Assembly: GCA_963575745.1 (NCBI GenBank)
Contig: CAUYUJ010000091.1
Location: 62,001-118,414 of the forward strand
From: Prorocentrum cordatum
Taxonomy: Eukaryota
Length of the DNA stretch: 56,414 nt
Direction: 5' to 3'
Position numbers and translations under genes: made by a program. Positions 9,964 through 47,909 of this stretch are shown in pieces (position 1 is the stretch's first letter; each line of letters begins with the position of its first letter). The notes below the pieces were generated by a model. That model had not been told where the DNA came from. It was given only the letters and a program-made list of their open reading frames with translations, and made no database searches.

Positions 9964-10039
9964 CCATCTCTATATCTATATCACATTCGAAGGAGCAGCG
10001 GCCAGTTCCCGAGGCCCCCGCGGGGGGGATATATGTTCG

Positions 10040-10872
10040 TATGTTTATGTGTATGCATGTATGTATGTATGTATGTATGTATGTATGTATGTATGTATGT
10101 ATATATATATGTGTGTATGTGTGTACGTATGTATGTATGCATGCATGCATGCATGTATGTATGGATGTATGTATGTATGTATGTATGTATGTATGTATGT
10201 ATGTACGTATGTATGTATGTATGTGTATACGTATGTATGTATGTATGTATGCATGTATGCATGTATGTATGTATTCATGTATGTATGTATGTATGTATGT
10301 ATGCATGCATGCATGCATGCATGCATGCATGCATGTGTGTATGTATGTATGTGTGTATGCATGCGTGCGTGCGTGCGTGCGTGCATGCATGCATGCATGC
10401 ATGTATGTATGTATGTATGTGCATGTATGCATACATGTAGGTAGGTAGGTATGTATGCATGCATGCATGCATGCATGCATGCTTGTATGCATGTATGTGT
10501 GTGTGCATGTTTGGCTGTATGTGTGTATGGATGTATGAATGTATGTATGAATGTATGTATGTATGTATGCATGTATGTATGCATGCATGCATGCATGCAT
10601 GCATGTATGTATGGATGTGTGTATATATGCATGTGTGTATGCATGCATGCATGCATGTATGTATGTATGTAGTGTAATGGAATGACATGAAATGTAATTG
10701 CAAATACAATGTAATGTAATGTGAGGTAATGTAATGTAATGTATGGTAATGTAATATAATGTATGTATATATGTATGTATGTATGTATGGGCGTATGTGT
10801 GTATGAATGAATGAATGAATTCATGCATGCATGCATGTATGTATGTATGCATGCATGCATGTATGTATGTAT
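10040..10872. repeat. (TATG)n/(TGCA)n compound microsatellite; resumes at 15737-15914; similar tract 17330-17480
   Basis: Directly visible tetranucleotide repeats. Confidence 0.95.
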
Positions 10873-12214
10873 GAGAGAGCGCGCCCGCAGGGCCCGAGCA
10901 AAGGGGAGGGGGGGGGGGGCTAGGCTTCCAGCTACCCCCCCTCCCTTGAGCCGCCCTTGTTGGAAGCACCCCCCCCTCCCCCCTTTTTTTGCAGGGGGGG
11001 GGGGGCTAACAGCCACCCCACCCCTCCCCCCTTGGACCCGCCCCGAAGCTAACCCCCCCTCCCCACCCCTCCTTTTTTCCAAGGGTGGGGGGTGCTTAAA
11101 GCTACACCCCCCTCCCCCCCTTTCGTGCAAAGGGGGAGGGGGGCTTGGAAGCTACCCACCCCCCACCCCCCTTTGGCCGCCCCGGAAGCTACCCCCCCCT
11201 ACCCCCGGGGGGGTGCTTAAGCTACCGCCCCCCTCCCTTGGAGCCGCCCTGCTGGAAGCTCCCACCCCCCTCCCCCCCTTTGTGCCAAAGGGGGGGGGGG
11301 CTTGGAAGCTTGCCCCCCCCCCTTGCCCCCTTTGGCCGCCCAGCCCCCGGAGCCTCCGCCCTCCCTTTCGCCGACGATCCAAAATGAACAATCCACGATC
11401 GAGGATGGACGATCGACGATCAACGATCGACGATCGAAAATCCCAATCGAATCGCTTGCAATCGATTGCACTCCATTCCACTGCAATCCCCCTCCCCACC
11501 TTCCTCCGCTCCCTCCCCTCCCTCCACACCCTTCGTTCCATCTCCTCCCTCCCCTCCCTCTCCTCCCCTCCCTCCCTTCCGTCCTGTCCCTTCCCTGCAA
11601 TCCAATCGATTGAATCGATTGCAATTCAACCGATTGCAATCCAATCGATTGCAATCCAATGGATTGCAATCGAATCGTTTGCAATCCAATGGATTGGAAT
11701 CGATTGCAACGCAAGTGTATCATTCAACGTGTCCCGTGACAACGCCCAGGAACGAAAAATTACCTTGGCGACGTACCCAACCCCTGCGCAAACGCGGGGC
11801 GCAAATAGTTTAGGACACTTTATAAGGCGGACGATGACGGAGCGAGAGTTACATATGTCTGCAGACGGAATTCGGGAGACTCGCAGGAAACTGGCTTCAG
11901 GACAAGGACTAGATAAAGCTAATTAGTTGCAATCCCTGAGCAACCCTAGCCACTTCGAAAGCGGGGGTCTCAGCTCGCAGCCCCCCAGGGATGGCGAGGT
12001 CTAATTCTGTACGCTTCGCGTATCCCCACCAGCCCATCTCACAGCAGCAACTCTCGCGAAGCTTGCCGACAGTCGTGTTTTTCAGGCGTGTGTCCGCTTG
12101 GCCCCGCATATCTCCCCTGTTCCTCCTTCCTCCCGCCTCCTTGTACATCCTCCTTGTGGGGGGAGCGGGAGAAGGACGAGGCGGAGGAGGAGGGAGAGAA
12201 AGCGCTCCTCGTGA

Positions 12215-13398: not shown

Positions 13399-14535
13399 AT
13401 TTGGGTCCGCGCGTGGCGTCACTGCGCTGGGCCCCCCAGCAGGCCTCGAAAGTGGCGACAGTTTCACAGATCGCAGCCCCCCCCAGGGATGGCGAGGTCT
13501 AATTTGAATCTGCGTGTGGCGTCACTGTGCTGGGCCCCCCCAGCAGGCCTCGAAAGTGGCGACAGTTTCACAGATCGCAGCCTCCCAGGGATGGCGAGGT
13601 CTAATTTGAATCCGCGCGTGGCGTCGCTGTGCTGGGCCCCCCAGCAGGCCTCGAAAGTGGCGACAGTTTCACAGATCGCAGCCCCCCAGGGATGGCGAGG
13701 TCTAATTTGGGTCCGCCCGTGGCGTCACGGTGCTGGGCCCCCCAGCAGGCCTCGAAAGTGGCGACAGTTTCACAGATCGCAGCCCCCCAGGGATGGCGAG
13801 GTCTAATTCGAATCTGCGTGTGGCGTCACTGTGCTGGTCCCCCCAGCAGGCCGCGAAAGTGGCGACAGTTTCACAGATCGCAGCCCCCCAGGGATGGCGA
13901 GGTCTAATTTGAGTCTGCGGTGTGTACCCACTGTGCTGGGCCCCCCAGCAGCCTTCGAAAGTGGCGACAGTTTCACAGATCGCAGCCCGCCCCAGGGATG
14001 GCGCGGGTCTAATTTTTGGGTCAAAACAAGCGCGCGTGGCGTCACGGTGCTTGGGGCCCCCCAGCAGTCCTCGAAAGTGGCGACAGTTTCACAGATCGTA
14101 GATCGGAAGGGGACGCGAGGTCTAATTTGGGTCCGCGCGTGGCGTCACTGTGCTGGGCCCCCCAGCAGGCCTCGAAAGTGGCGACAGTTTCACAGATCGT
14201 AGCTCCCCAGGGACGGCGAGGTCTAATTTGGGTCCGCGCGTGGCGTCACTGTGCTGGGCCCTCCAGCAGGCCTCGAACGTGGCGACAGTTTCACAGATCG
14301 CAGCCCCCCAGGGATGGCGAGGTCTAATTTGTGTCCGCGCGTGGCGTCACTGTGCTGGCCCCCCAGCAGGCCTCGAAGTGCGACAGTTTTTTTTTTTTTT
14401 TTTGTCAAAAAAAAAACAGATCGCAGCCCCCCAGGGATGGCGAGGTCTAATTTGTGTCCGCGCGTGGCGTCACTGTGCTGGGCCCCCCAGCAAGCCTCGA
14501 AAGTGGCGACAGTTTCACAAATCGCAGCCCCCCGC
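13399..14535. repeat. ~101 bp tandem satellite, about 11 copies; a detached half-unit lies at ~11976-12006
   Basis: CAGATCGCAGCCCCCCAGGGATGGCGAGGTCTAATT..CTCGAAAGTGGCGACAGTTTCA recurs at ~13467, 13571, 13672, 13773, 13874 and onward. Confidence 0.95.
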
Positions 14536-17130: not shown

Positions 17131-18522
17131 ATAGGCTAAACCCAGAGAGCAGCGCGAGCGCTAAGGACCATAAGCAGCGCGAGCGCTAAGGACGAGCTCT
17201 GTTATCTTTGTTCGAGTCTTCCGTCGACCTTTTTTTTTCTGACGCGTTTCGACGAAGATTGGCTCGATTTGTCCTTGACCCCGGCTAGAACCAAAGCGCG
17301 CGCGAAGCGCGCGCGATGGTTGTAGTATTTATGCATGTATGTAAGTAAGTATGTATGTATGTTTGCATGTGTGTATGAATGCATGTTTGCCTGTATGTAT
17401 GTGTGTGTATGCATGCATGCACGCATGCATGCAATCATGCACGTATGCTTGCATGTATGTTGATATGTATGTATGTATGTAGACCTAGTGGTCTATACGC
17501 GTGTATATACATAGAGAGAGAGAGAGAAAGAATTGTCTGTCATTCACCGTGGGTAGTTCACGCGTGTATATACACATTCTAGATCTTTACATAAAACATC
17601 CCCCACACAGTGCTTGCGTGTAACCTCTGTGGGCTTTACTAGATTGGGCTGGTGCCCGCCTCGTGGGCTCCTCGTGGGCCCTCCGCTCTCTCGGGGGGGG
17701 GGCGAAGCTTCGCCTCTGGTGCCCGCACAATGGGGGGGGGCGCGTGGGCGCCCCGCTCGTTGGGGAGGGGGGGTACGAGTTGTGCCGAGGTTTCGCCTGG
17801 TGCCTGCCCGCGGGCGCCTCGTGGGCGCCTCCATGGCTCGAGCCACGCAGATTCTCTTTTGGAAAACAAAATAGGATCTACCCCCCCCTCCTGGCGTTAT
17901 CGCCCCCCCCTTTTCGGATATGTAAATCACATACGATTCTGACCACATGTCCACCCGAAATATGAATTTACACTATCCCAGGCCAAGTGGTATCCCCCCC
18001 GAGGTTCTTTTTGTAAGTAACGCTATGCGGTGACATTTTCTGCTCTAGCATAAGATTTGTTTCGCGAGTCCTTTTTACAAAAAAATGAGACGAAATGCGT
18101 GCGCGCGCCGCCGCGCGCGCATGCCGAAATCCTTCAAAAACCTTCGCTGATGGAAGGATTTCGCAATCGAGTTTCCAAAACACATACAAAAACAAAAGGT
18201 TTCGCAACACGGATTTGCGAAAAAAACTTCCGCGCGAGCTCGTGCGAAGTCATCGGAAAACCATAGGTTTTCAATCCAAACGGGCGTCGCGCGCGCGCAT
18301 GTCGAAATCTGTCGACCGCGTTTGCGCGTGCGCCGTCGCGAGAATCCTCTGCAAAATACGGAACGAAATGCAGACGCGCGCGTCGTCGCGTGCGTATGCC
18401 GAAAACCTTCAAAACCCATCGGTTTCGTAAGGATTTGAAAAATCGTGTCTCAAAAAAACAGTACAAAACCACAAGGTTTCGCAACACGGGTTTTCAACAA
18501 AAGCGTGCGCTCGCGCTCTTGC

Positions 18523-19135
18523 GTCGTCGTCGTCGTCGTCCTCCCTCTTCCCTTGTCGTCGTCGTCGTCGCCGTCGCCGTCGTCGTCTTCTGTCTTTCCT
18601 CGTCGTCGTCGTCGTCTTGGCGTCGTCGTCGCTTCCGTCGTCGTTGTCGCCGTGGTCGTCTTTCCTCCCTCGTCGTCTTCGTCGGCGTTTCGTCGTTCTC
18701 CCTCCTATTTCGTCGCCGTCGTCGTCGACGTCGTCTTCACTCCTCCCTCGTCGTTATCCTCCTCCCTCGTCGTCGTCGTCCGTCGTCGGCGTCTCGTAGT
18801 CGTCCCTCCTATTTCGTCGCCGTCGTCGTCGTCTTCGTCGTCGTTGTCGTCGTCGTCGTCTTCCCTCCTCCCTCGTCGTTGTCGTCGTCGGCGTCGCCGT
18901 CCTTCCTCCTTCTTCGTCGTTCGCGTCGTCGCCGTCTTCCCTCATCCATCGTCGTTGTCGTCGTTGTCGCCGTCGTCGTCCTCCTTCCTCCCTTGTCGTC
19001 GTCTTCGTTGGCGACGTCGTCGTCGTCGTCGGCGTCGTCGTCGTCGTCGACGTCGACGTCGGCGGTGTCGTCGTAGTCGGTGTCGGCGGCGACGTCGTCG
19101 TCGTCGTCGCTGTCGTCGTCGGCGTCGGTGTCGTG
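18523..19135. repeat. (GTC)n-based degenerate microsatellite
   Basis: Directly visible. Confidence 0.9.
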
Positions 19136-20971: not shown

Positions 20972-21942
20972 TTCATGTCAGAGTTCTCAGGAAGGCGTCG
21001 TGGGGTCTCTTCGAGCTCCTTCCGCGGATTCTAAGGGGCAGTTTGGGGTCATCTGGGGGGCGTCCTGGGGACCTCTTGGGGGCCCCTTGCGGCCTCTTGA
21101 GGGCCTCTTGCGGCTTCTTGGGGGTCCCTGGGAGCTTCCTCGGGGCCGCAGGCTCGAAATGTCCGTTCGGGTCCCCCCATTTGTGCCCCCTCTCGGGGCC
21201 GTCTTTGGGGCCTCTTGGGGCGTCTTGGGCACCTCTGGGACCGTTTTGGGGCCTTCTTGTGCAATGTAGGGGCCTTCTTGGACGCCTCCTGGGCCGTCTT
21301 GGGGCGATCTTGGGGGCCTCTAGGGTCGTTAGGGAGCGTCGAAAAGGCGGGAACGCCAAGCGCCTTCAGAAACCAGATGGAGTTCAATGATGTTGGCCTC
21401 TGGGGCCTTGGGAGGCCTCTTGAGGCGTCATGCAGGCCTCTTGGGCCGTCTGGGGGCCATCTTGAGCGTCTTGGAGCGATCGTTCGGCGACTCGGGGCCC
21501 TATCGGACCGTCCTCGGGGCGTCTTGGGGTCCCTTTGGCTCTTCTGGGGGACCTTTGGGGCCCGAAAACGTCACGCGACAAGACAACCGGGGCACGCTCC
21601 AAGCCCTAAGAGATTTGAGAATTTGGGGCCTGGGCCCCCTCAAGACTTCTCAGGGGTGTGAGCCGCGGCTCAAAGGATGCGCCAAATAGGCTTGCGTACC
21701 TATGCTTATATTAAGATGTGTAGTATACGTACGTATCCTTAGATGTTTATAGATGTATATCTAGAAACCTCTATATGTCTGCATGTTTGCGTCTTTGTGT
21801 ATATATATATATGTTTATTGTATATATTCGTACAGTTACTAACCAGTATGTGCATCCACCTATACATAAACATACATGAGTTGTGTGTATATGTATACGT
21901 ATCTATCTGTAGATCTAGATTGCGATCTCTTTCTTCGCGCAG

Positions 21943-22052
21943 GTGGCCAAGAGCTATGTGCAGTCCAAGGAGGCGCCCGCGAAGGAGATCCTCACGGATG
22001 TCAACGAGCTCTCCAAGGGCATACAGCACCCGCTGCGCGGGCTCTTCCTGAG
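21943..22052 (+). CDS. VPS35: VPS35 exon: VAKSYVQSKEAPAKEILTDVNELSKGIQHPLRGLFL(R)
   Basis: Conserved G.QHPLRGLFLR motif. Pyrimidine-rich acceptor gcAG|G, GC donor at 22053, phase 2 (AG|G = Arg). Confidence 0.95.
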
Positions 22053-25000
22053 GCGACCGGGCGGCCGCATGTGGGGGGAGGCCTGGCCGGGAGCTGGTCG
22101 GGGAAGGGCGCCTCCTGCCTTACAGGAGGGTCAAATACCCATACAGCGGAGGCCCGTGCCAACAAACACCTTGCTTGCCTCCAGCGTGCCCTGTGTTCTT
22201 TGGTTTTCGGTGGTTTTGCCATGGAAAGCGTTGACGTTCCCGCACCCAAAAATCCATGGACATCCTGGGGTCTCAGAGCTGGGTTTCTTGTGGAGTTCTT
22301 TGTGGACTACCCTCCACTGTCTGGCTGCGTTTCCATCGTTTTCCTTCTCAGAGGGGGTCTGGCCTGGGGCCCCGGGGCGGGTCGGGGAAGGGCGCCTCCA
22401 GCTTCACAGGAAGAACACGTACCCATACGGCTAACTATCCCTCGGTTTCCTCCGGGAGGCTCTCGTTGCCAACGCTGGATTCGCCTCGACAATTCTTGGT
22501 CAGGACGCACCCCGGGAGAGGTCTTGGGAGTAGCGGTCTGGGTACATTCTAGTTCCCCCAAAGCGCGGGTCGGGGAAGGGCGTTTCCTGCCTTCCCATTT
22601 CGCCGTGCGACGCCAGCTGCTCTTTTTCGTCGTCGTTCTCCTCCTCCTCCATCTCCTCCTCCTCCTCCTCCTCCTCCTCCTCCTCCTCCTCCTCCTCCTC
22701 CCTCCTCCCCTTCCTCCTCCTCCTCCTCCTCCTCCTCCTCCTCCTCCTCTCTCTCTCTCCCGTCCTCCTCCTCCTCCTGTTCCTGTTCCTCCTCCTCTCC
22801 CCCCTCCTCCTCCTCCTCCTCCCTCTCCTTCCCCCTTCCTCCTCCTCCTCCTCTCCTCCTCCTCCTCCTCCTCCTCCTCCTCCTCCTCCTCCTCCTCCTC
22901 CTCCTCCTCCTCTTCCTCTTCTGAAAAGGGGGCTGCAGCTTCTGGTTGGGCGTCCAACCAGGCACAGCCTCTTCTCGGGCGGCGCGGGGTCCAGGACACA
23001 GCCAGCGGGGCTCTCCATCTGGTGTGCCTCGCTCTGGACAAAGCCTCCCGTCGGGCGACACGGTGTCTGGTCGGAGCCAACGCGGTTTCATCCGGTGGGC
23101 CTCCACTTGGACAGCGTCTCCTCAAGCAGTGGCGAAGCATCCTGTCTCGCCTTTAGGCCCACCAAAGTTCAAAGAAGCTGTTGTGGTTGACCTGATGAAC
23201 AGAAGGCTCGGAAGTCTCCCGGCCTTCTGAGAAGTTCTCGAAGCCTGCCACGAATTACACAAAAAAACATTCTCAGGAGACGCGAGGGAAGCCCCGCCGC
23301 CTTCTGAGAAGGCCCTCTCCTTCTCACTTCCCCCCCTCGCTCGCCGCCAACCGCAGCTTGAGCCCCCAGCTCCTCGGTGGGCCCTCTGAGGCACATGGCA
23401 GATGGCAAGTGGCTCGAGCCCTCTGTGGGGCCTCTGAGGCAAATGGCCTCTGTGGGCACCGTCCCCAGTTCTGCCGCCCACGTCCTCTTAGGGTGGGGCT
23501 CTCTCAGGTCCTCCAGGGTGGGGCTCGCTCGGGCCTCCCAGGGTGGGGCGCTCTCGGGTCCTCGGCGGTGAAGTTCCTGAGGCGATGCTGTCACGCGATG
23601 CTGCTCGCATTCTTCGTAATGCTGTCCCACTGTCGATTTTACCACGAGGGCAGACGTAGCGATCGCAAGGCAGGCGGGCACGTTGGCAGCTATGTCGTCC
23701 GACGGCCCCCCCCCACCCCCTGCACAGGCAGCCATGCAGCTCCTCTCAACAGGGCGAAATTCCAAGGGCGATTCGGATGTTGAAAGGGGCGCCCACATCA
23801 GGGCTTGTTTCGATTCGTGCGAATCGATTCGACTTCGATGGCTTCCGATTCCGATTCGAGTTGACTTGGGATTTCGATTTGGGTTCCGATTTCTTGTTGG
23901 AGACATACTCGTTTGCCGATGTCCGCCGATTTAATTTTTACCAACTTGGCTGCCGATTTCCGCCGATCCAACGCATGTTGATCGCCGATCCCACTCGTCG
24001 TTTCGATTCTTGGCTCTCCTGGCCCACATCTCGAGCGAGGGCCAGTGGCAGAGAGGGGGCAGCGAGGGGAGGAAGGGAGGGAGGCGATGGGGACGGGGCG
24101 CAGCTCCCCTGTACTTGGCATCGCTCGGGCGTTTCGCATCCTCTTCTCCGCACACGGCATCTGCCGCGTGGCCGCCGACGCCCGTTTTTGGTGCATCTAT
24201 CAGCTTATTCCGGAATGCACCTCCTCCTCCTCCTCCTCCTCCTCCTCCTCCTTCTCCCCCTCCTCCTCCCCCTCCTCCTCCTCGGAGTGCAGGGTCACCG
24301 GCGCGGTATTTGACCCCTACTCGCACGGTGCTGCGCTGCATGCGCTTTCCTCCTGGGGCGCCCCGGCAGGCATGGGCCCGAGGCGTGCGCGGCACTGCAA
24401 AGGGCGGGCCGGTCTCTCGGACGGCCCCGCGTCCGAGGACCATCGGGGAGAATCCTGCACCGCCTGGGCGAAAGCGAGAGCACGCACGAGGCCGAACACG
24501 TGCACGGGGAGCGGACGTCCGAGCGATGGCAGGTGTGGTGTCCCCCTGGAGGGAGAGCGCGCGATTCTATCTTCGCGTGGCGTGCCCCCCGCGCCATCTG
24601 CCGAGGCGCTCCTGGTGCGGCCCCTCCCTCCGAATCGTGCCTGGGTCACCCGCGGGGTCCGCGAAGGAATCCGCGCTGCGGGGGTCTGCGCTCGAGAGGC
24701 GCTTTTTTGTTCTGCGGGGGGGGGGGGGGCGACACGAGGGCGCGGAGACCACTGAGCGACGCAAAAAAACGGGGCCGTCTTCGCCGACGCTGGCGCGCAA
24801 GCTGCCCGCTGGTTAGGGTCGCGCGTGAGCTCTCCCGCTTCCAGCGCAGCGTGCCGCGCTGGCGGCCCGCGTAAGCCACCGCGTCAGGTCGCTGCAGTCG
24901 GGGTTATGAGCTGCTGTGCAGTTTGCCTCTGGTTTTCCTTCGGTCTTCGAGGGGGAACCGAAGCTGAAGTTATGGAGGAAAGCGGCCTCGTTCCTTCTTT

Positions 25001-30588: not shown

Positions 30589-30889
30589 GATGACAAACCA
30601 CTCAGTGCCGACGGCACCGTGGTAGATTGGGGCTTTGGAGGGGTGTGCACGGGAGCGGGCCAGGGTTTCTTCTTCTTCTTCTCATTCGTATTATGTTTAT
30701 CCTCATTGTTATTATTATTATTCTTCTTCTCAGCGTCGAGGGGGGAGAGTTGAGGAGGGAAGGTGGTTGAAGACAGGGACGGGCGTTGGACGGGCAGGGG
30801 GCGAGAGGAGGAGAGGTGATGGTATGAACGAGCATAGGAGGCAGGCAGGCAGACAGGCAGGCAGGGTCGCCCGCTCCCTGCACACACAG

Positions 30890-30990
30890 GTGGCAACATC
30901 GACGACGCATTCAACTTTATCTTTAGCAATTTCATGGAGAGCAACCGGCTGTGGGTGCGGATCCAGCACCAGGGTCCTGCCAAGGACAAG
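30890..30990 (+). CDS. VPS35: VPS35 exon: (G)GNIDDAFNFIFSNFMESNRLWVRIQHQGPAKDK
   Basis: Conserved NF.E.N.LWVR.QHQG motif. Acceptor acAG|G, GC donor at 30991. Confidence 0.95.
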
Positions 30991-31491
30991 GCCGCTAGCC
31001 GATGGCAACTTGTTGAAACAGGTATGGGAGTGGGAGGGGCGGGAGGAGCGGGAGGAGCGGGAGGAAGGATGCACGGAGGAGGGAGACGGGGAGGGCGGAA
31101 GAAGCCGGGAGGAGGATTGGGAGGAGTGGGGCGTCGATGATTAACGGGTGAGGAGGGCGAGGGGAAGGCTGTGCAGGAGGAGGAGCAGGAGGAGGAATGA
31201 GGACAAGGGGGAGGCTCAAGAGGTAGAGGATGTGGGAGGAGGAGGAGGAGGGAGGAGGAGGAGGGAGGAGGAGGAGGAGGAGGAGAGGAGGAGGAGGAGG
31301 AGGAGGAGGAGGAGGAGGAGGAGGAGGAGGAGGGGGAGGTGGTGTGCGGAAGAGTGGGAGGTGGGAGGACGTGAGGAGGATGTCGATGAGGGGGAGGGGG
31401 GCGCGAGGAGAGGCAGACGAAAGAAGGGGGGGGGGGGGGGCGCAGGAGCAGAGGGCAGGGATCCCGGCAGCCCCAGCTCGCTGGGCCCAAG

Positions 31492-31607
31492 GCCCGACGG
31501 GAGAAGGAGAGGCACGACCTCCGCGCGCTCGTCGGGGCCAACCTGGGGAGGCTCAGCCAGCTGGAGGGGATGACTGTAGACTACTACGTCAACACCGCGC
31601 TGCCCAG
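31492..31607 (+). CDS. VPS35: VPS35 exon: ARREKERHDLRALVGANLGRLSQLEGMTVDYYVNTALP(R)
   Basis: Conserved RE.ER..LR.LVG.NL.RLSQLEG motif. Acceptor caAG|G. A non-canonical GA donor at 31608 is required for the in-frame join to the next exon. Confidence 0.92.
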
Positions 31608-34146
31608 GAGCCCCGCCCGCTGGAGCTGCTCTGCTCTGCACGCCGGTCGTTGAAGGTAGGTCTGTTTGGACATGTTGATCCGAATCTGCTACGGGCGCCT
31701 TCCTACATCAAAAGAGTCGAGCTCCTGCAGTCCTTCTTGCCTCCTCCTCCGTGGCGGGTGGAAGCCCAATCTATTCCCAACGCCTTCCTACTTCATGGTT
31801 CTACCCACTTCTTCCGACCAGCGGGTAGTGTCACGGGCTGCCAACGCACCCGTGTCCGCGCCCTCGCCTGTCGGGATTCCGGGGCGCGCTCCCCTGGATG
31901 CGCGGTCGCACGGATGCCTTCGCGGCGGGGGGGGCAGCCGCGACAAAAACGCCCCGCATCCGAGGGGTCGCGGCCTAGAGGCCCGGTTTGCGAGGCTGCG
32001 GATACGAATTTTTGCTTAGCAGTACCCGCACTGGGCCTTGCCTCAGCAGGTGCACCGGCGCAGCAGCCGCCTCCGTCCCCGCTGGCGGGGCTGGCCGTGC
32101 CAGCTCACGCAGGGAAGTGATCCGTCCCCCCTGAGTGGCCCTCGACTTGCCTCCCCCCCTCTGCGCCCTGTCCTGTTTTCCTTTCTTGCATGTTGGCCAA
32201 TTCGCTACAACGGTGCCCCCGTTTAGTGGGATCCATCCGCCTGCGCAGACAACCTCTGCCTAGCCGCCGACGGAACAAAATTAGGAGCGCCCGTGGCTGT
32301 GAGGATGGAGTTGTATGGTGGCGTTGAGGTCCACGTCGATGTTGACGGGGTGGACGTGCAGCCCGATCTGGAAACGTGCTTGGGCGTACGTCGGTAATGC
32401 TGACGATCAGGATGAAAAAGTATGTGGATAACGGCGACGCCGATGACGATGGCGATGATTCTTGTGGTGGCGGCGAAGATATCCACAACTCCAGCGAGCA
32501 GCCAGAGACAGGGCCTGCATCTTGTGGGCCAGGCGGCGAGCTCTGCGCGCGACGCGGGTACAACAGGCGCACAAACGAGGCAGCGTGAAACGTGTTGACC
32601 TCCAGTCGGACCTGCCCCATCTACAGGGGGGAAATCAAAACATAATACAAACATACTCTGGAGACGATTTGTTGGATTTGTGTTGAGTTTTTTTTTCCGA
32701 TGGTGTGTGGTATTTTGCCCGTTGGTTCTTGCCTTTGGGCGGATTTGTTGAAAGTTGTTTATTGTTCTGTTTGGGTACTATTTGAGAGTATGTGTCTTTT
32801 TCTGCGTCTTCTGGATTATTTTGTGGGCATGTTTCGATTATTCGTTCGTCCAAGATTCCCCTGGAAGGGGACAGGCCCGACCTAACCCGAGATCGAGGAA
32901 GCTTGGCCAGCGCGCCACTGGAATTCCCGCCGCATGGCCCCGAGGCGCTGCCACACACGCGAGCGAACCGAACGGAAGAGTCATGAAGGGCCCATCTCCC
33001 ACCACCGCTACAAGAGGTTGGAGAGGGAGGCGGAGGAGGAGGAGGAGGAGGAGGAGGAGGAGGAGGAGGAGGAAGAGGAGGATGAGATCCTCCTCCTCCT
33101 CCTCCTCCTCCTCCTCCTCCTCCTTCTCCTCCTTCTCCTCCCTTCTCCCCCGTTCTCCATGTGGTAGTGGTGATGGAAAACCTGCCCATCGAATCAGGTA
33201 GGACCGCATACCCAGACATCTGGCTGCTCCAATTGTTTTGGTGCGTGGACCCTGGAGGTCCAGACCTTTTCCTTGGGACCCGCTTTTCGTCCGGAGTTGT
33301 TTTTTGACGCTACCGAGACCCAGCAAGGGCCCCCGGAGGCCGAAAACTGCCAAAACCCCGCCGCTCTTTTTGGGGGGGGGCGTCGGATCTCAGGGCACAT
33401 GTCAGCCACGAAGCACTTGTGCCGACTGCGCCGACGTTCGCGCGCAGGCCGTCCGCGCAGGGCCCCCCCTCGTGCGCGTGGCCTGCTGCACCAGCCGCAC
33501 GCAGAGCCCGCCGTGCAGACGCAGTTTTCTTCGTTGCCCAGGAGGAGGAGGAGAAGGAGGAGGAGGAGGAGGAGGAGGAGGAGGGGGGGGGGGAGAAGGA
33601 GGAGGAGGAGGAGGAGGAGGAGGAGGAGGAGGAGGAGGGTCCGAGTTCGATGGCTTCCGGTCCCGACTCGATTTGGCGTGGGATTCCGATCTGGGTCCCG
33701 ATCTCTCGTCTTGGGCGCGCACTACGGCCTGCCGGTATCCGCCGTCCCGATTCATGTCGATCCCCGATCCGACTTCTTGATTCGATTCTGGGCTCTCCTG
33801 CCTGATGGAACCCTCTCGTGCGCGTTGCTGATCTGGGACAGCCTCGGGCGCCTCTCGCCCCTGTCCTGGCGCGAGCGCCGCTCGAGAGGCCGTTCGGGCT
33901 TAGGAGCGGCTCCGTATGGAAGGCATGTCCCGAAGACGACGTTCCGAAGTCGAGCGAGTTGCACACCTGGTGTGACGAGTACACGTTGGACGCTGAAAGC
34001 AGGTAGTTCTGGGCTCCCGGATCCCAATCTAATTAATTCAAGCGCCCGTCGACTTCAAGAACCGGTCTGCTTTTATCGTGTTCTGTTGTCTTTTGGGAGG
34101 GTCTGGACCCAGTCTACTTGATTCGCCTTCCTACTTCATGTCTCAC

Positions 34147-38322: not shown

Positions 38323-38409
38323 CGAGGAAGAGGAGAAGGAGGAGGAGGAGGAGGAGGAGGAGGAGGAGGAGGAGGAGGAGGAGGGAGGAGGAGGAGGGAG
38401 GAGGAGGAG

Positions 38410-38469
<60 letters not shown>

Positions 38470-38950
38470 GAGGAGGAGGGAGGAGGAGGAGGAGGAGGAG
38501 GAGGAGGAGGAGGAGGAAGGAGAGAGGAGAGAGGGGAGGGAGGAGGAGAGAGGAGGAGGAGGATGAGGAGGAGGAGGAGGAGGAGGAGGAGGAGGAGGGA
38601 GGAAAGGGGGAGAGAGGAGGAGGAGGAGGAGGAGGAGGAGGAGGAGGAGGAGGAGGCGGAGGAGGAGGAGGAGGAGGAGGAGGAGGAGGAGGAGGAGGAG
38701 GAGGAGGAGGAGGAGGAGGAGGAGGAGGAGGAGGAGGAGGAGAGAGAGAGAGGAGAGAGGAGAGAGGAGAGAGGAGAGAGGAGAGGAGAGAGGAGAGAGG
38801 AGAGAGGAGGAGGAGGAGAGGAGGAGAGAGAGGAGAGAGGGAGGAGGAGGAGGAGGAGGAGGAGGAGGAGGAGGAGGAGGAGGCAGGAGGAGGAGCAGGA
38901 GGAGGAGGAGGAGGGACGAGAGACGAGGAGGGGGGGGGGGGGGGGGGGGG
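38323..38950. repeat. (GAG)n / poly-purine microsatellite; representative of many (GAG)n/(CCT)n tracts, e.g. 4438-4565, 6370-6700, 22640-22920, 25580-25905
   Basis: Directly visible. These tracts generate the poly-E/P/S/R/G ORFs in the track. Confidence 0.95.
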
Positions 38951-39136: not shown

Positions 39137-39394
39137 TAATGGCAAACAGTAGCATCAGGACCTCGACATCTAAAACCCAGTCGAGGTTGCAAGCGGTCCA
39201 GATAGGCCTATAGGTCTGAAGGGTTATTTTTTTAGCACTCTGGAAGGTCAGGGGAGCAGGGGGGGAGCAGGGGGGACCCTCGCGCCGTCCTCTGCGCCAT
39301 CCAGCGGGCGGGACGTGCTGCCTGCCGCCTGTTGCCGACCTGCGGTCGACAGGGAGGAACAGGAGGGGGCAGTGAATGATGGGGGGGGGCCAAG

Positions 39395-39464
39395 GATCGT
39401 GGAGCACATCGTGTCCGTGAGGGACACTATGTCGCAGCAGTACTTGCTGGAGATTATGATTCAA
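39395..39464 (+). CDS. VPS35: VPS35 exon (last recognisable): (R)IVEHIVSVRDTMSQQYLLEIMIQ
   Basis: Matches VPS35 ILEQVV.C.D..AQ.YL.E.IIQ. Acceptor caAG|G, GT donor at 39465. The expected next exon (VFPDE.HL) was not found in the window. Confidence 0.9.
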
Positions 39465-39485
39465 GTCCCTCCATTAATATGTTTG

Positions 39486-39516
<31 letters not shown>

Positions 39517-39520
39517 TTTT

Positions 39521-39555
<35 letters not shown>

Positions 39556-39561
<6 letters not shown>

Positions 39562-39577
39562 ACCATTTTGGCTCAAG
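39556..39577 (+). other. Relic dinoflagellate spliced leader (DinoSL)
   Basis: TCCGTAACCATTTTGGCTCAAG matches the consensus DCCGTAGCCATTTTGGCTCAAG at 21/22 positions. It is followed by ATG rather than a GT/GC donor and SL intron, so it is not an SL RNA gene. Confidence 0.95.
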
Positions 39578-39747
39578 ATGTCCGATTCCCTCGGGGTCAG
39601 AGTGGAGACCTCTGATCCGAGGACAGCAACCGACAGTTTTCAGCTCCAGGGAAGCGCACCCCCCTGGAGTGCCGAGACTGCCCCTGCCGCGGCGTGCGGC
39701 TACGCGAGTTCTGCCACCAGAGTCTGGAGTTGGGTTCCAGGGTCACG

Positions 39748-41007
39748 ATGGCGGGCGACGGCGCAGGAACGCTGCTGTTCGGGCCCAAGCGGCCACATTG
39801 GGGGTGCTCCCGCTGCGGCACGGCCAACAACTGGGCCTGTCGCCTGCAGTTCCGATGTGGCGCGCGCGCGCCGCAGCGGGTCATCACCAAGGCTAGACAG
39901 GAAGAGAAGAAACTCAGAGCCGCCGACAACCCGAAGGGGCAGCCTCCTTCGCGCAGCGGTGGCAACGGCGGAGGCAGGCTTGATTCGTCACAGCTGGCGC
40001 CATGGGCCTCGTCGAAGCTCGAGAAGGAGTTGGTGGCACTGCGCAAGCATGTCCAGCAGCTCAAGATGGAGAAGGACAAGGACCCTGCCCCACCTCAGGC
40101 AGCCCCCACTTTCGTGTCTGATGCGGCCATGGGGGTTGATGAAGGCTCGGCAGGGGCCAAGGACACGACGGCGACGGCGTTGCAGCGGAGCGCTATTCAG
40201 AACAAGATCGGCCACTACGAGCTGTTCGTCAAGTCCCTCGCCCTCTACGAAGACACTGAAGCTGAGCAGCTACAGACGGCCAAGAAGCAGCTGGAAGTGC
40301 TTCGAGTACAGCTACGTGAGCTACGTCCGCCGTCCACGGCGCACAAGGTCGCAACGCAGAAGTTTGAGCGCTGCCGTACCCAGCTCGATCGCTACCGCAC
40401 CGAGGCTGCTGACCGACGCGAGAAGATCGCTAAGTTACAAGAGGCGTTGGGCACGAAAGAGGCCGCCATCGTCCAGGAGGAGGCTGAGATTGTCCAGCTC
40501 ACCATGGAAGTGCGCACCTGTGCCGAGGCGCTGTCGGAGCAGCGCGGCGAGCCCGTCACGGCGGCGACGAACCCTGCGTCCGCCCCCGTGCTCTCGCCCG
40601 GCTTCTTGCAAGTGGATATGCCCGAGCTTGAAGGCCAGCCTGACCTCAAGCTCTTCTACCAGCAGGTCACCACTGACCCAAGGTTCAGCTCGCTCCAGCA
40701 GGTGCTGGCCAAGCACGTCAAGGTCAGCATGGTGCCGCAGCAGCCGTCTCTTGTTCAGCCTGCTGGTGGCGCTGATGATGATCATGAGCTGGATGACAAG
40801 GCTGATGTCGTTAAGCGCGGAGCCGAGCCCACACTCGGCATGGATGGCGTTCGACAGATGTACGAGGAGTTCAAGAAGGCAGGCGCTGTCACAGGCGAAT
40901 CTGAGGAGCAGCTGGTCGCGCGGTTGCATGAGCTCGTCGATGACATGCACAAGGCCAAGCGTGGCCGCGTCGCCCAGCCAGCCCCTGCAAGCGTGGGGTG
41001 TGCCTAA
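39748..41007 (+). CDS. LINE ORF1 (419 aa from ATG 39748): N-terminal RanBP2-like zinc finger plus long coiled coil
   Basis: WGCSRCGTANNWACRLQFRCG (one Cys apparently replaced by F), heptad-rich E/K/Q/L segments, strong cacgATGG start context, coding-like codon bias, position upstream of EN/RT. Confidence 0.85.
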   Translation: MAGDGAGTLLFGPKRPHWGCSRCGTANNWACRLQFRCGARAPQRVITKARQEEKKLRAADNPKGQPPSRSGGNGGGRLDSSQLAPWASSKLEKELVALRKHVQQLKMEKDKDPAPPQAAPTFVSDAAMGVDEGSAGAKDTTATALQRSAIQNKIGHYELFVKSLALYEDTEAEQLQTAKKQLEVLRVQLRELRPPSTAHKVATQKFERCRTQLDRYRTEAADRREKIAKLQEALGTKEAAIVQEEAEIVQLTMEVRTCAEALSEQRGEPVTAATNPASAPVLSPGFLQVDMPELEGQPDLKLFYQQVTTDPRFSSLQQVLAKHVKVSMVPQQPSLVQPAGGADDDHELDDKADVVKRGAEPTLGMDGVRQMYEEFKKAGAVTGESEEQLVARLHELVDDMHKAKRGRVAQPAPASVGCA

Positions 41008-41089
41008 CCACCAGCCCCGCGTGAGCGGGCTGCGGCTGCGACGAGGTGAGCTCCTACGTGCTGATGCACCGCTGAGCTCCCAGAAGTCG

Positions 41090-44000
41090 CACTTGCTCGA
41101 GACCTTTCATGCCACTCAGGGAAAACCCACTCTGAAGCGACGGCTTGAACGGACGCAGGCGCTGGTGGTGCTAGTTCAGGAGACTGGATATCATGCGCAT
41201 GAAGTTGAGGAGCTTCAATCTTGGGCAGGTGCCCGTGGCTGGCAAGTGATTGCCGTTGCAGGCAGTCCGACCGAAGGCTACCTGCCTTCCGCTGGCGTGG
41301 CGGTCTTCGCTCGCAGCGAGGTCGGGCTGCGCTGGCCTGATGGCCGCAGCTCGTCGATGTTGGTGCCGCAGCGCGCCCAGCACGTCATTGTTGATTTACC
41401 GGGATGGGAGCCCATTCATATCTTCAATATCTATTTGCATACGGCTGGGGGCATCACGGTGCGCAACGCGCGTATCCTGTGCTCCGTAGGCGAAGCCATG
41501 TCTGGCATTCTCGCCCCGTGCATCATCGGCGGCGACTGGAACATGCCTGCCAGTGAGGTGGAGGACTCCACTTTCCCAGCCAACGCGCAGGTCAGCTTGG
41601 TAGTTCCGGCGGCAATCACATGCCGCACTGCCCGCTCGTGTTCCACGATAGATTTCTGCGCGTTGAGTTCTGCAGCGATGCGTTCGCTCAAGTGTGTTTC
41701 AGCAGATGTGGCGTGGCCAATCAAGCCTCATCGACCTGTTCAGTTGCAGCTTGCCATTGATGGGCAGTCTCTGCAGCACCTTGCTTACGGCATGGCGCCT
41801 AAGATCCCTGGCGTGCAGGTTCACGGGCCACACTGCGAAGACTCGTCCTGGGCCACTGAGGCGTCCTATGCTGAGCACGCGGTGGAGTTGGCCAGGCACC
41901 GGCGCGCTGACGGCGCCTGGGGTTTTCTGTCAACAGCTTGGGCCAAGTTTGTAGCGCGCGCAGCTCAGAGGCTTTCGCATGTCACCGCCACAGAGATCAA
42001 GGACTTCAACTCCTTCGCCAGGTGCCCCACGCCAAGGTGGGTGGAGGTCAGCTATGAGGCCAAGGATCCCGAAGGCGTTCAAGCCCGCGCCGAGGGCTGG
42101 CGGTGGCTTCACAATGCTATCACCTACATCATCCAGCTGGGCGAGGGCGCCTCTGTCAGGCCTACTAGTGGCCAGCCAGCTTCGACGGTTTCGTTGGCGA
42201 CAAGAGCAGTTCCATGCCCACAACCTGCAGCTGGTCACGCCGTGGACGTTGAGGACCGCGACCCGTTCGAGGACCTGGCTGCAGATCTGGATGACAGTGA
42301 TACTACTCAGAATGGGAATCGGTCTAACATCGGATCCAGGCCATGCGCCAGCTCCCACCCCCCTGCTGTGTCTTTTGGGCAGGATGGCAGTCTCGGTCCG
42401 ACCCCTGGCGGCGGTGCGGCGCCGTTGCTGGATGCAGCTTGTCTAAACTCGGTGTCCGAAGTGCACAGACAGCGTGATGGCTCCTCCGCCAGCCAGCTGG
42501 CGCGAGAGATCGAGTCTTTCCAGGCGCTGGTCTACGTCGGCCAGGGGCTCAACCACAGGCTCGATGCCACCGTGGAGCAAGCCCGCAGGCTCGCCTCCTA
42601 CGCGCCGCTTCGCATTGACAACCTGCGCGAGCTGCTGGCCGACATTGGGGGGGACTTCCAGGCCGTCAACCAGGAGGCAGGCCGAGACAGCAGCAGTCGC
42701 TGGAAGGCGTGGCGCGACCAAGCTAGTGCTGGCGGTGCTCGTGGCCTCCACCGCGTCACCAAGGTCAAGGATGCGCAGCAGCCGACTGTTCGCGGAGCCC
42801 GAGGTGCCACTGTTCATCCTCATCACGTTGTTCGGGTCATGGAGAAATCCTACATGGAAGTGTGGCATGGATCAGCGCAGGCGCAACGTGCTCGTGTTCC
42901 TGATCGCGCGTCCCTGCCCAGAGCCACGCCTGAGCAGATCAGAATGGCTGCGAAGTCCTTTCCGTCGTCGACTGCCAGCAGCCTGGACGGCATCCACCCG
43001 CGCTGCTTCGCGTTCCTCAGTGATGATGCGCTCAACGTGCTGAGCGCCCTATGGGAGGCTACAGAAGCGCTCGGCTTGCTGCCGAAGCAGTTGCAGTGGA
43101 TCCTCCTCCCCATGCTCCCTAAGCCGACTGGCGGGCACAGGCTGGTTGTGATCTACGCTGCCAGCTACCGCGTCTGGCAGCGCGCCAAACGAGTGCATTC
43201 GGAACCTCTGCAGCAGTTTCTTGATCGCAAGTACTGGGGTGTCTCCACTGGCAGGTCGGCGATCGACAATGCTTGGGTGCCGGCGGCACGGACTGAAGTG
43301 GCCGCGTCTACTCAGATGCACTCTGTCACGCTGGTGGCTGACTATTCGAAGTATTATGAGGAGATTAACCTTGACGAGCTGCAGTTTAAGTTCGACCAGA
43401 TGCAGGCGCCCACTGGTTTCACTAAGCTCATCTTCAATACGTGGCGAGGTCCACGGATCATTAGGTCTCAACGGCACCATGGAGAGTTTCCAGGATTTGC
43501 ACTGCGCGGAGTACCTGCTGGTGATGGTGTTGCTGACATTGCCATCAAAGTTCACGCGCTGGCGGAGTATGACAGGCACGTGTGCCTTCACCCGCTGGCA
43601 TCTTCTTCCAGCTATATTGACGACACGGCGATTGGCCTGCATCACGCCGATCCGCAGCGTGTCATCCAGCTTGCCGTCCAGGCTGGGCGTGATTTTCAGC
43701 AGGTGGCCACGTGGCTTGGATCTCGTATCAATGACAAGTTTGCCATCGTCGCTTCTAGTGCTGCGCTTGGGCGAGAAGTTGCACTTCAGTTAAATGTGAC
43801 TGACGAAGCGGCAGTCAGGCGTGTTGTCTCCTACCTAGGCGTCGACTACTCAGCAGGTCGCGCTCGTCAGGCCCCAGGAGCTCGTGCCAAGCAGAGGGCT
43901 CGCCTGGCTCGGCACAGGAGGCGGATGCGCAAGATATCCAAGTACAAGAAAGCGACTCCTGTGAAGAAGGACCTTCGCCTAGGCAGGATCTACCGCACTG

Positions 44001-46102
44001 GCGCGCGCCCTGCATGCACGTAAGGAGTAGAAGTCAATGGCCTGGCTGATGCAGAGCTTGGTGATCTTCGCCGTGCTTATGGGCGCCAGGTCAAGCCTTA
44101 CCACGGGGGCACGTCGGCCACGGCCAAGCTGGCGCTGGACGGTGACCCCGCCATCCGACAGGCGATCGCGCCAGTCATTCAGTACAGCCGCATGCTGTGG
44201 GAAGCTATTACACGTCCTGAGCGTGCGATTGTATCGCAGGAAGATCTCTTGCTTTGGTGGGACTCTGCTGTTACTTTCTTGGGCCGCCCTTGCAGCTGGG
44301 CTAAGTCACGAGGGCCACTGGAGCGAGCGGCTCTGTGTCTTGAGCGCGTCGGCTGGACCACACACAGCGGCGCCCCCTGGCGTGATCATCTGGATCAAAA
44401 GGGTCGTGTCGACCAGCTTTCACCAGCCGTAGTTGAGGACCTGCTCAGTGCGGCGATGCAGCGGATGCTCGAATGTCAATTTGCTGACAAATGGGAGTTG
44501 CCTGCTGGAGTTCGTGTCACGTTCAACCTCATTCAGGGCGCGGCCCGCGAGCGCTCGGCCAAGTACACCAAGTATCAGAAGTTCCTCATTCGCACCTGCG
44601 CATGCGAAGGAGTGTGGACACGACAGCGGGCACGAGAGCGCGGGTACGACACCAACGGCCTCTGCAGTTGCGGGCAGCCTGATACTGTCCACCACAGGCT
44701 CTACTCCTGCATGCGAGCTGACGTAGTCGCGGCACGTTCTGATAGCGGAGTCAGTCCGACGTTCACCCACGGGGGTCACGAAGCTGACGGGGATCTGCGC
44801 TAAGTCACGGGGGCATTCGCCTACGAGGAGCGTCTGCTGCCACCGCTTGATAGCGGTACGACTGTCCACCTTCTTGATGCTGATGGTCATGAAGCAAATC
44901 GTGAGCCTGAGGCTCTCTGCAACATCATTGCCCCCAGCGTCCCGTCCGTGGAGATTGCAGGTGACTGCTCTTGCAGTGTGCCGCTCCTTGCAGCTGCTCG
45001 CCGCGCTGGCTGGGCTTTGGCACTGCTGGACCCGAGCGGCAACCAGCCGCTCCGAGTGATGTGCGGTGCAGTCCCTGGCTCCCTGCCGCAGCGATCAGCC
45101 ATGGCTGAGCACTTGGCACTGGCATACGTCGGGCAAGTGGTGGACAGGCCGACGGACGTCCTCGCTGACTACATGGCTGCTGTGATTGGGGCCACCAATC
45201 GCCCCGAACAGCAGCTGCGACCTGGTGCGCGATATGGTTGTGTCAAGCTTTTTGGTCAACAGGTGCATGGTTTTCATCACATTCGGTCCGTGTCGCACGT
45301 GAAGGAACATCGCTCTGCTGACCAGTATGCTCAGTTGTCTGAGGTTGATAAGCGTCTCACTGACGCCAATGTTGTTGCTGACGTCTTCGCCAAGCGCGCG
45401 GTCCAGCTGCATGAGCCCGTGCCGCGTGAGCTTGATGAGCAGCTCGAGACTGGGCTGCGCATCGCGAATGGTTTCGTGTCTCTGGCCGCCGCCGTGCTGC
45501 CGCTTTTCGACAGAGAGGAGCGCTGGTCGCGAGCGTCGGTGGCACAGCGCGCTGCACACATTCAGCGCACTCGTTGGCATGACTGGCGCCGCACAGTGAT
45601 AGGCGAGCAATGTAGCAAGTGTTTGTGTTTAGCACATGACACGCATGACAAGCCCCTCTCAGGATGTAGGGGCATGCCCAAGTATCTTGACAGTTTTGTG
45701 CGTACCCCTCTAGGCCGCACACTTGTAGCTGTGAATCAGGGGGGCAAGGCCCCTGCGTGCCCAGGTTGCTGCCGCCCAGTGTATGTGTGTACTAAGTGTG
45801 GTGCCTGGGCTCAGCAGTCCAGGAGGAGCAAATTAAGACGACCTTGCGAGCCCCCCACCAGGAAGGGGCTTGAGGTCCTTGCGAATTTACGTAACGGAGT
45901 TGGCCCCCACAGGGGACTCGCTCGCCAGGTTGACGCCGCCCTCCCAGCTCTTCAGTCTGTGTCTTGTGCTGTGAGGCGTCCCGAGCTTGAGACCACACGC
46001 GTTTCCAGAGCTCCTGTGTCCGAGGGCCCCCCGACCTACGAGTCCAGGATGGCTGCCCTCGCCGAGAGAATTCGTCTGAAAGAGCAGGCTGCCTCAAGGT
46101 AG
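41090..46102 (+). pseudogene. LINE ORF2 (APE endonuclease - RT - CCHC knuckle - RNase H - Cys-rich tail), one frame interrupted by TAA at 44021-44023 and 44801-44803; the same frame is open back to ATG 39578
   Basis: EN: LVQET, IFNIYL, IIGGDWN, TIDF, PHRPV. RT: LPKPTGGHRLV, ADYSKYYEEI, RGVPAGD, SYIDD, YLGV. Knuckle: CSCGQPDTVHHRLYSC. RNase H: GDCS..AGWA, AEHLAL, LADY, HVKEH, NVVADVFAK. Tail: CTKCGAW..LRRPC. Track ORFs 39578-44023, 44192-44803 and 44948-46102 share one frame. Confidence 0.92.
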
Positions 46103-46459
46103 TCTGTTTTCAGGCGTGGCAAAGTCGCCGAAGGTTGTGCATTGTTTTGCACGCGCCAGGGCCCAGAGCTGCTGGCGTGATCAGGTTGAGCCGCCATCCT
46201 CCTCGGAGTTTCAGCATTCAGCATTCAGCATTATCTCTCTATCTCTCTCTCTCTATATATATATATATGTATATATCGGAGGTTGTGGGGTGAGATCGCA
46301 GTGGAACGGATACCCCCAACCGGGAAATCGTTTCGTTTCGTTCGTGTCGTGCGTGCGGGCGAGGCGAAGTTGCGCGGGCGCGCGCGAGGAAAGAACCCGC
46401 CGTTGCTAGGGCGAAGTCAAGACAATTGATTTCCCCCCGCCCGCCCGTCCAGCGGTGGC

Positions 46460-47860: not shown

Positions 47861-47909
<49 letters not shown>

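Follow-up and report, generated by a model that had tools for sequence, protein, structure and literature searches.

Introduction

The mRNAs of dinoflagellates are generally trans-spliced. In other trans-splicing organisms, elements without long terminal repeats (non-LTR elements) are known to be inserted in the leader RNA genes, including SLACS, CRE, and CZAR in trypanosomatids and NeSL-1 in nematodes. The leader beside these elements is target DNA, and the leader-gene-specific elements use a restriction-like enzyme. Here we describe a long interspersed nuclear element (LINE) of Prorocentrum cordatum, whose 5' terminus is a relic of the spliced leader found in dinoflagellates (DinoSL). The element is located on the + strand of a 56.4-kb stretch of contig CAUYUJ010000091.1 (GenBank assembly GCA_963575745.1). 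The whole stretch is referred to as the window, and all coordinates are window positions. The leader was probably acquired by trans-splicing of the element's own mRNA.

In Trypanosoma, the Pr77 promoter drives transcription of the L1Tc/ingi elements from the first base, and the transcripts are unspliced (PMC1874656, PMC8190864). In dinoflagellates, the retrogenes with a DinoSL relic are described as recycled processed cDNAs (Slamovits & Keeling 2008, via PMC12014239, PMC6050394, PMC5585692). In Symbiodiniaceae genomes, leader-tagged retrocopies were reported to lie upstream of roughly one gene in five (PMC6050394). Their retroposition was attributed to unidentified retrotransposons, with one paper favouring Ty1/copia (among PMC12014239, PMC5585692, PMC6050394, and others); the responsible reverse transcriptase (RT) is called unknown (PMC12014239, PMC5585692, PMC6050394). 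The L1 element is described as the engine of processed pseudogenes (PMC12014239). The nearest statement to the present finding concerns the relict-bearing genes of two Symbiodiniaceae genomes, which are enriched in "RNA-dependent DNA replication"; the authors read this enrichment as retrotransposon activity (PMC5585692). No description of a LINE beginning with DinoSL was found in the passages covered, which besides the other cited papers included PMC3229502, PMC11453091, PMC3942190, PMC7789003, 10.1101/783902, and 10.1101/2022.07.25.501386; the relict-gene lists in supplementary tables may contain RT genes.

The window LINE was compared with these systems. As in the DinoSL-relic retrogenes, the genomic copy starts with an RNA-added leader, the mark of reverse transcription of a mature mRNA, and a sense DinoSL match stands at the 5' boundary of the unit. 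However, the copied mRNA would be the retrotransposon's own, and an autonomous element has the relic as its terminus. As in SLACS, CRE, CZAR, and NeSL-1, a non-LTR element is joined to spliced-leader sequence in a trans-splicing organism. In contrast to those elements, the flanks are microsatellites behind an exon of the host gene VPS35, with no leader-gene sequence; the complete leader exon is joined to the element's own 5' untranslated region (UTR), and the endonuclease is of the apurinic/apyrimidinic (APE) type. Like L1Tc/ingi, it is a LINE that needs a translatable full-length RNA in a trans-splicing organism; whereas the trypanosome LINEs use an internal promoter and unspliced RNA, the leader itself occupies the first bases of the window LINE, which points to the opposite solution. 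The human LINE-1 also has two open reading frames (ORFs), and its ORF2 likewise combines an APE at the N-terminus with an RT and a CCHC knuckle; the window RT profile matches its ORF2p. Unlike LINE-1, the window LINE contains an RNase H, an extra Cys-rich C-terminal domain, a zinc-ribbon motif in ORF1, a microsatellite-type tail, and a 5' leader in place of an internal promoter.

Termini of the window LINE

The first 22 bases of the element match the DinoSL consensus DCCGTAGCCATTTTGGCTCAAG (printed in PMC7245778) at 21 of 22 positions; leader position 7 is A instead of G. This is the sole site in the window at up to three mismatches, and none of 100 shuffles matched (0/100). The leader is directly joined to the element sequence ATGTCCGATTCC, with ATGTCC... 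after the leader. The claim of an earlier note on this DNA, that the element begins at DinoSL right behind a (CT)n tract, is thus confirmed. Tandem Repeats Finder (TRF) identified a (TC)36 array of period 2 at 39486-39557, which abuts the leader without a gap. Base 39556 (T) can be assigned to the flank or to the leader; thus, the element carries the first 21-22 leader bases.

Both flanks belong to one type of repeat, and the two might form a target-site duplication, the length of which cannot be fixed. Only 162 bases of the window belong to (CT)n arrays of 12 bp or more, and both element junctions are in such sequence. Therefore, the element probably represents one insertion into one microsatellite, with the leader inside the inserted unit. 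A composite (CT)9(TA)13 microsatellite, resembling the inferred target site, was also observed at 47862-47904, 1.6 kb downstream of the element; such composite repeats are thus native to the host intron. No internal or terminal repeat of the element was found in the window, which contains no second element copy.

The bona fide leader RNA genes found in four loci of public collections (L125, L126, L131, and L137) show the leader exon followed by GTAC.... No leader-gene intron was found behind the leader, or behind the 3' end of the element, at the window locus. The leader exon alone, without GTAC..., fits trans-splicing and not the copy of a leader RNA gene. An insertion into a leader RNA gene, or a copy of the whole leader RNA, is excluded at this locus by the absence of GTAC...; Rfam also gave no matches in the window. 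The earlier note had named insertion into a leader RNA gene, or beside a pre-existing relic, as the case that would speak against it; neither applies at this locus, where a microsatellite on both flanks and no leader-gene intron were found.

LINEs with the same terminus in public collections

Public collections were scanned for the exact 21-mer leader (119 IMG/VR loci and 20 loci of metagenome-assembled genomes, MAGs), which gave 156 distinct sites in 138 loci of both kinds together. LINEs are carried by 2 of the 22 loci that are not giant-virus-like, L149 and L135, both on contaminant contigs. L149 is the whole contig behind locus L132 (9096 bp, GC content 0.70), and contains a complete LINE. 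Its 5' side consists of (AGAGAGAC)n/(AG)n to base 116, followed by the exact leader at 117-137; its 3' end is an A6 tail, followed again by (GA)n, and both junctions are visible in (AG)n. The ORF1, which is that of L132, matches Pfam Zn_ribbon_RanBP (1.6e-7), and the ORF2 of 2536 codons matches APE (5e-9) and RT (4.5e-11) families. It is a distant relative of the window LINE, sharing 33% identity in the APE and 24% in the RT of ORF2. L135 (2541 bp, GC content 0.43) contains the exact leader with GT directly behind it, a 98-nt UTR, a 286-aa ORF1, and an ORF2 opening with an APE (7e-8); the 3' flank is beyond the contig. BLASTP found no similarity between the ORF2 of L135 and the window ORF2. 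As a control, 143 further ORFs of the same 22 loci, each with 130 aa or more (on the other strand, upstream, or in other frames), were compared with RT and APE families, and none matched.

The three LINEs share no detectable 5' UTR similarity, and their DNA has GC contents of 0.43, 0.60, and 0.70. All of them start within one base of leader position 1-2. None has a truncated second relic (CCATTTTGGCTCAAG) behind the leader, unlike the classical DinoSL tandem arrays, such as the leader-relic-relic array at locus L130. The absence of a second relic may mean that the daughters descend from a few master copies with a native acceptor. Alternatively, the terminal AG of the relic may serve as acceptor, and the same mRNA may be regenerated each time.

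Origin of the leader terminus

The leader is inside the insertion, only its exon is present, and the same layout recurs in L149 and L135; therefore, the RNA of the element itself appears to have been leader-capped and fully copied. The comparisons make it probable that LINE mRNAs are trans-spliced with the spliced leader, and then reverse-transcribed to the capped end. The earlier note had proposed that the leader was present on the element's own RNA and that copying extended to the very 5' end; the microsatellite flanks, the absence of a leader-gene intron, and the two further LINEs support this proposal. The template of the window copy would be a mature LINE mRNA, already trans-spliced with the 22-nt leader. 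The element's endonuclease and RT would have inserted the copy into the (CT)n microsatellite by target-primed reverse transcription, and extension of the cDNA to the capped 5' end of the RNA would have made the leader the first 21-22 bases of the DNA copy. The change at leader position 7 (G to A) and two nonsense codons in ORF2 would have arisen after insertion. The locus is best explained as an APE-type LINE copied at full length, which is young and slightly damaged, and we infer its RNA history from this structure.

Several points weigh against the trans-splicing origin. The evidence consists of DNA sequence; among sequencing runs, four of DNA type were matched, with 0.26 of the sampled words at best, and none of RNA. 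Both flanks are simple repeats, and the exact target-site duplication cannot be stated. The flank upstream of the leader in L149 is purine-rich on the sense strand, which indicates that a pyrimidine tract is not general. L149 and L135 were selected by the leader search; they show recurrence of the layout, not its frequency. No second copy of the window LINE family was found in the window, in IMG/VR (ORF2 scan), or in metagenomes (24-mer behind the leader; RT alignment A2); thus, the 5' end of the family is defined by the flanks of one copy alone. The RT searches made without the leader covered 15 contaminated MAGs and a 401-genome family sample around G005, which is in both. They identified three related LINE fragments (L154, L158, and L189), and the remainder were bacterial group II-type RTs. 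The three fragments are cut by contig ends and have no 5' junction either way.

Protein searches were also performed. The word-index search gave one distant match for ORF2 and no match for the peptide translated through the leader. No leader-encoded peptides were found at the N-termini of 152 related proteins. The HMMER search identified two short fragments, P0054 and P0068, with 100% and 93% identity to the window element, which hints at further copies of the family in public data.

The leader might have been captured once long ago and be inherited now, with transcripts starting at or near the relic, which would serve as an internal promoter or initiator, and no re-splicing in each cycle. The TTT(T/G) motif kept from the leader was proposed as a promoter of retrogenes (Song et al. 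2017, PMC5585692). DNA cannot distinguish a re-added leader from an inherited one, and the A at position 7 could be inherited as well. However, three LINEs with dissimilar 5' UTRs and differing GC contents share a start within one base, and this common start is the pattern predicted by copying to the capped leader end. The exact consensus is also present in two of the three, although those two were selected for it. We therefore regard an inherited leader as rather unlikely.

It is much less probable still that the LINE landed by chance beside an older relic, or that it targets leader RNA genes as do SLACS, CRE, and NeSL-1. Leader relics are common, being upstream of about 22-23% of dinoflagellate genes (PMC6050394), and L135 has GT behind its leader and a 3' flank off the contig. 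However, exact abutment in three LINEs is unexpected by chance. The flanks of the window LINE are one microsatellite, and not leader-gene sequence with its intron; both junctions of L149 are in (AG)n; and the window endonuclease is APE-type. At the window locus, this explanation is mostly refuted. Template switching accounts for the human U6-L1 chimeras. That the RT, on reaching the 5' end of an unspliced LINE RNA, switched to leader RNA or another leader-capped RNA is hardly to be expected here, although template switching is a known property of non-LTR RTs (PMC8857657; 10.1101/2021.05.13.443781). A jump onto leader RNA would copy the intron portion too, whereas the exon alone is present, and a jump onto another mRNA would interpose its 5' UTR, whereas the junction is clean in three LINEs.

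A LINE that starts with the leader might be expected by a specialist, given the general trans-splicing of dinoflagellate mRNAs; it bears on which enzyme makes the retrogenes. If the leader was acquired by trans-splicing, LINE mRNAs enter the trans-splicing pathway, and a LINE RT copies leader-capped RNA to its end. The 5' products of such a LINE look exactly like the 5' ends of the retrogenes. This suggests that a LINE enzyme could also make the retrocopied genes of dinoflagellates, and RTs of this class would then retrocopy host mRNAs as well.

Coding content of the element

The features of the window LINE and its surroundings are listed in Table 1.

Table 1. Positions of the window LINE, its domains, and the adjacent host sequence.
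Feature	Position	Strand	Evidence or remark
Upstream VPS35 exon matches	~21940-22053, 30886-30996, 31489-31608	+	Pfam Vps35, E 3e-12 to 4e-11
Last visible VPS35 exon	39390..39464	+	ORF 39174-39893, residues 73-100; Pfam Vps35 E=1.5e-5; GT at 39465-66
5' flank, (TC)n microsatellite, target-site sequence	39486..39555	.	~70-nt pyrimidine tract on sense strand
LINE, full length	39556..46232	+	6.7 kb, APE-type; ORF1 and ORF2, (TTCAGCA)n tail
DinoSL relic, 5' terminus of the element	39556..39577	+	Reads TCCGTAACCATTTTGGCTCAAG
Upstream extension of ORF2 frame	39578..41008	+	First AUG right behind leader; spans all of ORF1 in +1 frame, no stop
ORF1, 419 aa	39748..41007	+	Open reading frame
ORF2 reading frame	41009..46102	+	Single frame over 5.1 kb, two TAA interruptions
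APE endonuclease domain	41132..41659	+	Pfam Exo_endo_phos E=1.1e-4, 22.5 bits (cut-off 24.5)
Reverse transcriptase with N-terminal extension	42626..44020	+	RVT_1 1.7e-6, 28.3 bits (cut-off 29.6)
First in-frame TAA	44021..44023	+	Replaces tyrosine conserved in relatives
CCHC zinc knuckle 3' of RT (CSCGQPDTVHHRLYSC)	44579..44719	+	Read from sequence; weak Pfam zf-RVT, E=0.099
Second in-frame TAA	44801..44803	+	Read from sequence
RNase H domain	44939..45403	+	Catalytic D-E-D-H-D set present
Cys/His-rich C-terminal domain, conserved	45611..45907	+	Alignment A3: C225, C228, C243, H260, C284, C287, C303
3' UTR, 130 nt	46103..46232	+	Ends in tail (TTCAGCA)3.3 at 46210-46232 (TRF)
3' flank, CT-rich microsatellite remnant, then (TA)n	46233..46267	.	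Begins ATCTCTCTATCTCTCTCTCTCT behind tail

The N-terminus of ORF1 contains a Cys-rich RanBP2-like zinc-ribbon motif of variant spacing (~39799-39870), followed by a coiled-coil region. The zinc-ribbon is similar to that of the L132 ORF1 (E=0.003); Pfam gave no zinc-ribbon match in the window ORF1 at E<=10, and weak coiled-coil-type matches only. The window ORF1 is homologous to the N-termini of two relatives, P0004 and P0088.

Homology was found along the entire length of ORF2. The copy therefore seems otherwise intact, with ORF2 in one frame. The exhaustive HMMER search with ORF2 identified 2890 relatives, of which 173 reached E<=1e-30, with identities mostly of 25-47%. The APE region has 46% sequence identity to P0004 and 33% to the APE of L132, which is above the Pfam cut-off. 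The RT has the active-site motif YIDD (alignment A1). The A1 profile matches residues 340-520 of human LINE-1 ORF2p (E ~1e-7) and a group II intron RT (3.6e-9); the single ORF2 sequence gave no match in the PDB. The ORF2 thus combines a predicted YxDD RT and an N-terminal APE, as is typical of the APE-type non-LTR elements. In A1, the column of the first TAA is Tyr-Gly in seven of the eight relatives that reach it (P0031, P0059, P0087, P0091, P0094, P0103, P0110, and P0113), with Trp-Gly in P0091. Therefore, this TAA is a nonsense mutation, and not the natural end of ORF2.

Alignment A3 (13 sequences) showed that E57, D77, H124, N144, and D148 of the RNase H are invariant, and D9 is at least 90% conserved. 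The AlphaFold2 model of this domain has a mean predicted local distance difference test (pLDDT) value of 77.7, and the confidence is lower in the Cys/His-rich C-terminal domain. The best PDB matches of the RNase H model in Foldseek are all RNase H, with E down to 1.8e-6 and target template modelling (TM) scores of 0.6-0.75. The predicted fold and the catalytic carboxylates downstream of the RT are those of an RNase H-bearing LINE ORF2. The earlier note was right to describe an ORF1 plus an APE-RT-RNase H ORF2, with Pfam matches of APE and RT just under the cut-offs, the HMMER relatives, and the RNase H fold in agreement. Its picture of the ORFs has to be corrected in two respects: ORF2 has two in-frame TAA stops, and the ATG at 39578 opens the frame of ORF2, not ORF1.

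Overlap of the ORF2 frame with ORF1

The frame of ORF2 is open across the whole ORF1 of the window LINE. No stops were found against 6.8 expected from permutation of synonymous codons, a result reached by 1 of 5000 permutations in one run and none of 5000 in another. In L149 (206-1357), the ORF2 frame is also stop-free across ORF1 (0 vs 9.7 expected, 0/5000 permutations). The open frame of L149 has a different relative frame from that of the window, and one stop lies between it and ORF2. Alternative frames have the expected stop counts both in the ORF2 bodies and in the unrelated L135 ORF1. The depletion of stops in two related LINEs suggests a conserved overlap of the ORF2 frame with ORF1, and translation of ORF2 may begin at an AUG of its own, close to the 5' end of a leader-capped mRNA.

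In P0004 (residues 1-170 and 275-664), an ORF1-like coiled-coil part is fused in frame to the APE. In P0088 (residues 3-52 and 328-667), an ORF1-like zinc-ribbon part is in the same polypeptide as the APE. The two proteins may be single-ORF members of the family, or merged gene models. These fusions argue against a simple overlap: the arrangement may vary, or the window copy may be frameshifted near the end of ORF1.

Host gene and possible re-expression

The four collinear Vps35 exons cover profile positions 100-137, 158-194, 192-231, and 230-257 (of 726). The element is in sense and starts about 90 nt behind the last VPS35 exon match. A Pfam search of 95 ORFs on the + strand and a motif search revealed no downstream VPS35 exon within the remaining 10 kb. 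Given VPS35 introns that already reach 8-9 kb and a profile of 726 positions, the element is likely within a VPS35 intron. The earlier placement in sense inside a VPS35 intron therefore stands for the orientation and for the upstream side, with its four collinear exons, but not for a downstream exon within 10 kb. The host introns are full of long simple and tandem repeats (189 TRF rows in 56 kb). Examples are a (GAG)196 array immediately before the last VPS35 exon, (GTAT)204, 9.7 copies of a 101-bp unit, and (CGT)196 (coordinates, listed together: 38324-38931, 10039-10873, 13399-14532, and 18522-19127).

Behind the VPS35 exon, no AG precedes the terminal AG of the relic (39576-77), which is also the sole AG before the element body. 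The G-to-A change at position 7 abolishes the internal AG of the relic, and about 70 nt of pyrimidines are upstream of the terminal AG. This layout fits a re-use of the terminal AG as trans-splice acceptor in this copy. Re-expression might thus be promoterless, by transcription within the VPS35 pre-mRNA and trans-splicing at the terminal AG of the relic.

A wider scheme can be put forward only tentatively, and we consider it doubtful as a whole: dinoflagellate LINEs might have no internal promoter, and use the host trans-splicing as their 5'-end machine. A sense copy in any transcribed region would be excised from the pre-mRNA at the AG that ends its relic, and the addition of a fresh capped leader would give an identical mRNA in every cycle. 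Such an identical mRNA would explain the lack of tandem relics in the three LINEs. Leaky scanning would let the translation of ORF2 start at an AUG of its own close to the 5' end, in a frame overlapping all of ORF1. The thousands of retrogenes tagged with the leader would owe their long-sought origin to the same enzyme, which would copy leader-capped RNA completely and insert its products in simple repeats.

Other leader sequences in the public collections

Leader relics that abut simple repeats, like the window (TC)n, were also observed in L120 (1-59), L123 (1-52), L134 (1-55), and L132 (1-137), where the repeats are GT-rich, (CAT)n, (GACA)n, and (AG)n. In this respect the window LINE resembles the DinoSL-relic loci L120, L123, and L134. 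The ORFs behind the relics of L120 and L134 have no Pfam match at E<=0.001, except a sub-threshold WW (4.3e-4) in the third ORF of L120. No similarity to LINE proteins was found for the ORFs behind the microsatellite-flanked relics (L120, L134, L129, and others). Apart from its relic, L123 contains bacterial genes, and it may be a chimera.

The exact leader 21-mer is also present inside otherwise bacterial-looking contigs: L127 at 7980-8060 (L152 at ~16104) and L121 at 8001-8021. About 0.3 chance matches of the leader 21-mer are estimated for a collection of this size. The leader of L127 is flanked on both sides by the same 19-nt sequence, TTTTGCTTGCAGGCGTGAG. L127 was rejected as a third LINE example; there are bacterial genes on the contig (stretch L150), and a weak RT match is 6.9 kb from the leader. 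The three stretches of the L127 contig have no detectable mutual similarity at the thresholds used.

The giant-virus-like, AT-rich contigs (L001-L119, IMG/VR MAGs; e.g., L011, L020, L024, L051, and L106) contain dozens of exact DinoSL 21-mers. These leaders are on both strands, each directly behind a recurrent AT-rich motif, such as ...tttttaaatataaatttta, ...attttactaaacca, or ...ctagta. They resemble a leader that is encoded in the genome and stands where viral genes begin. L024 and L064 contain short tandem units, each with a leader.

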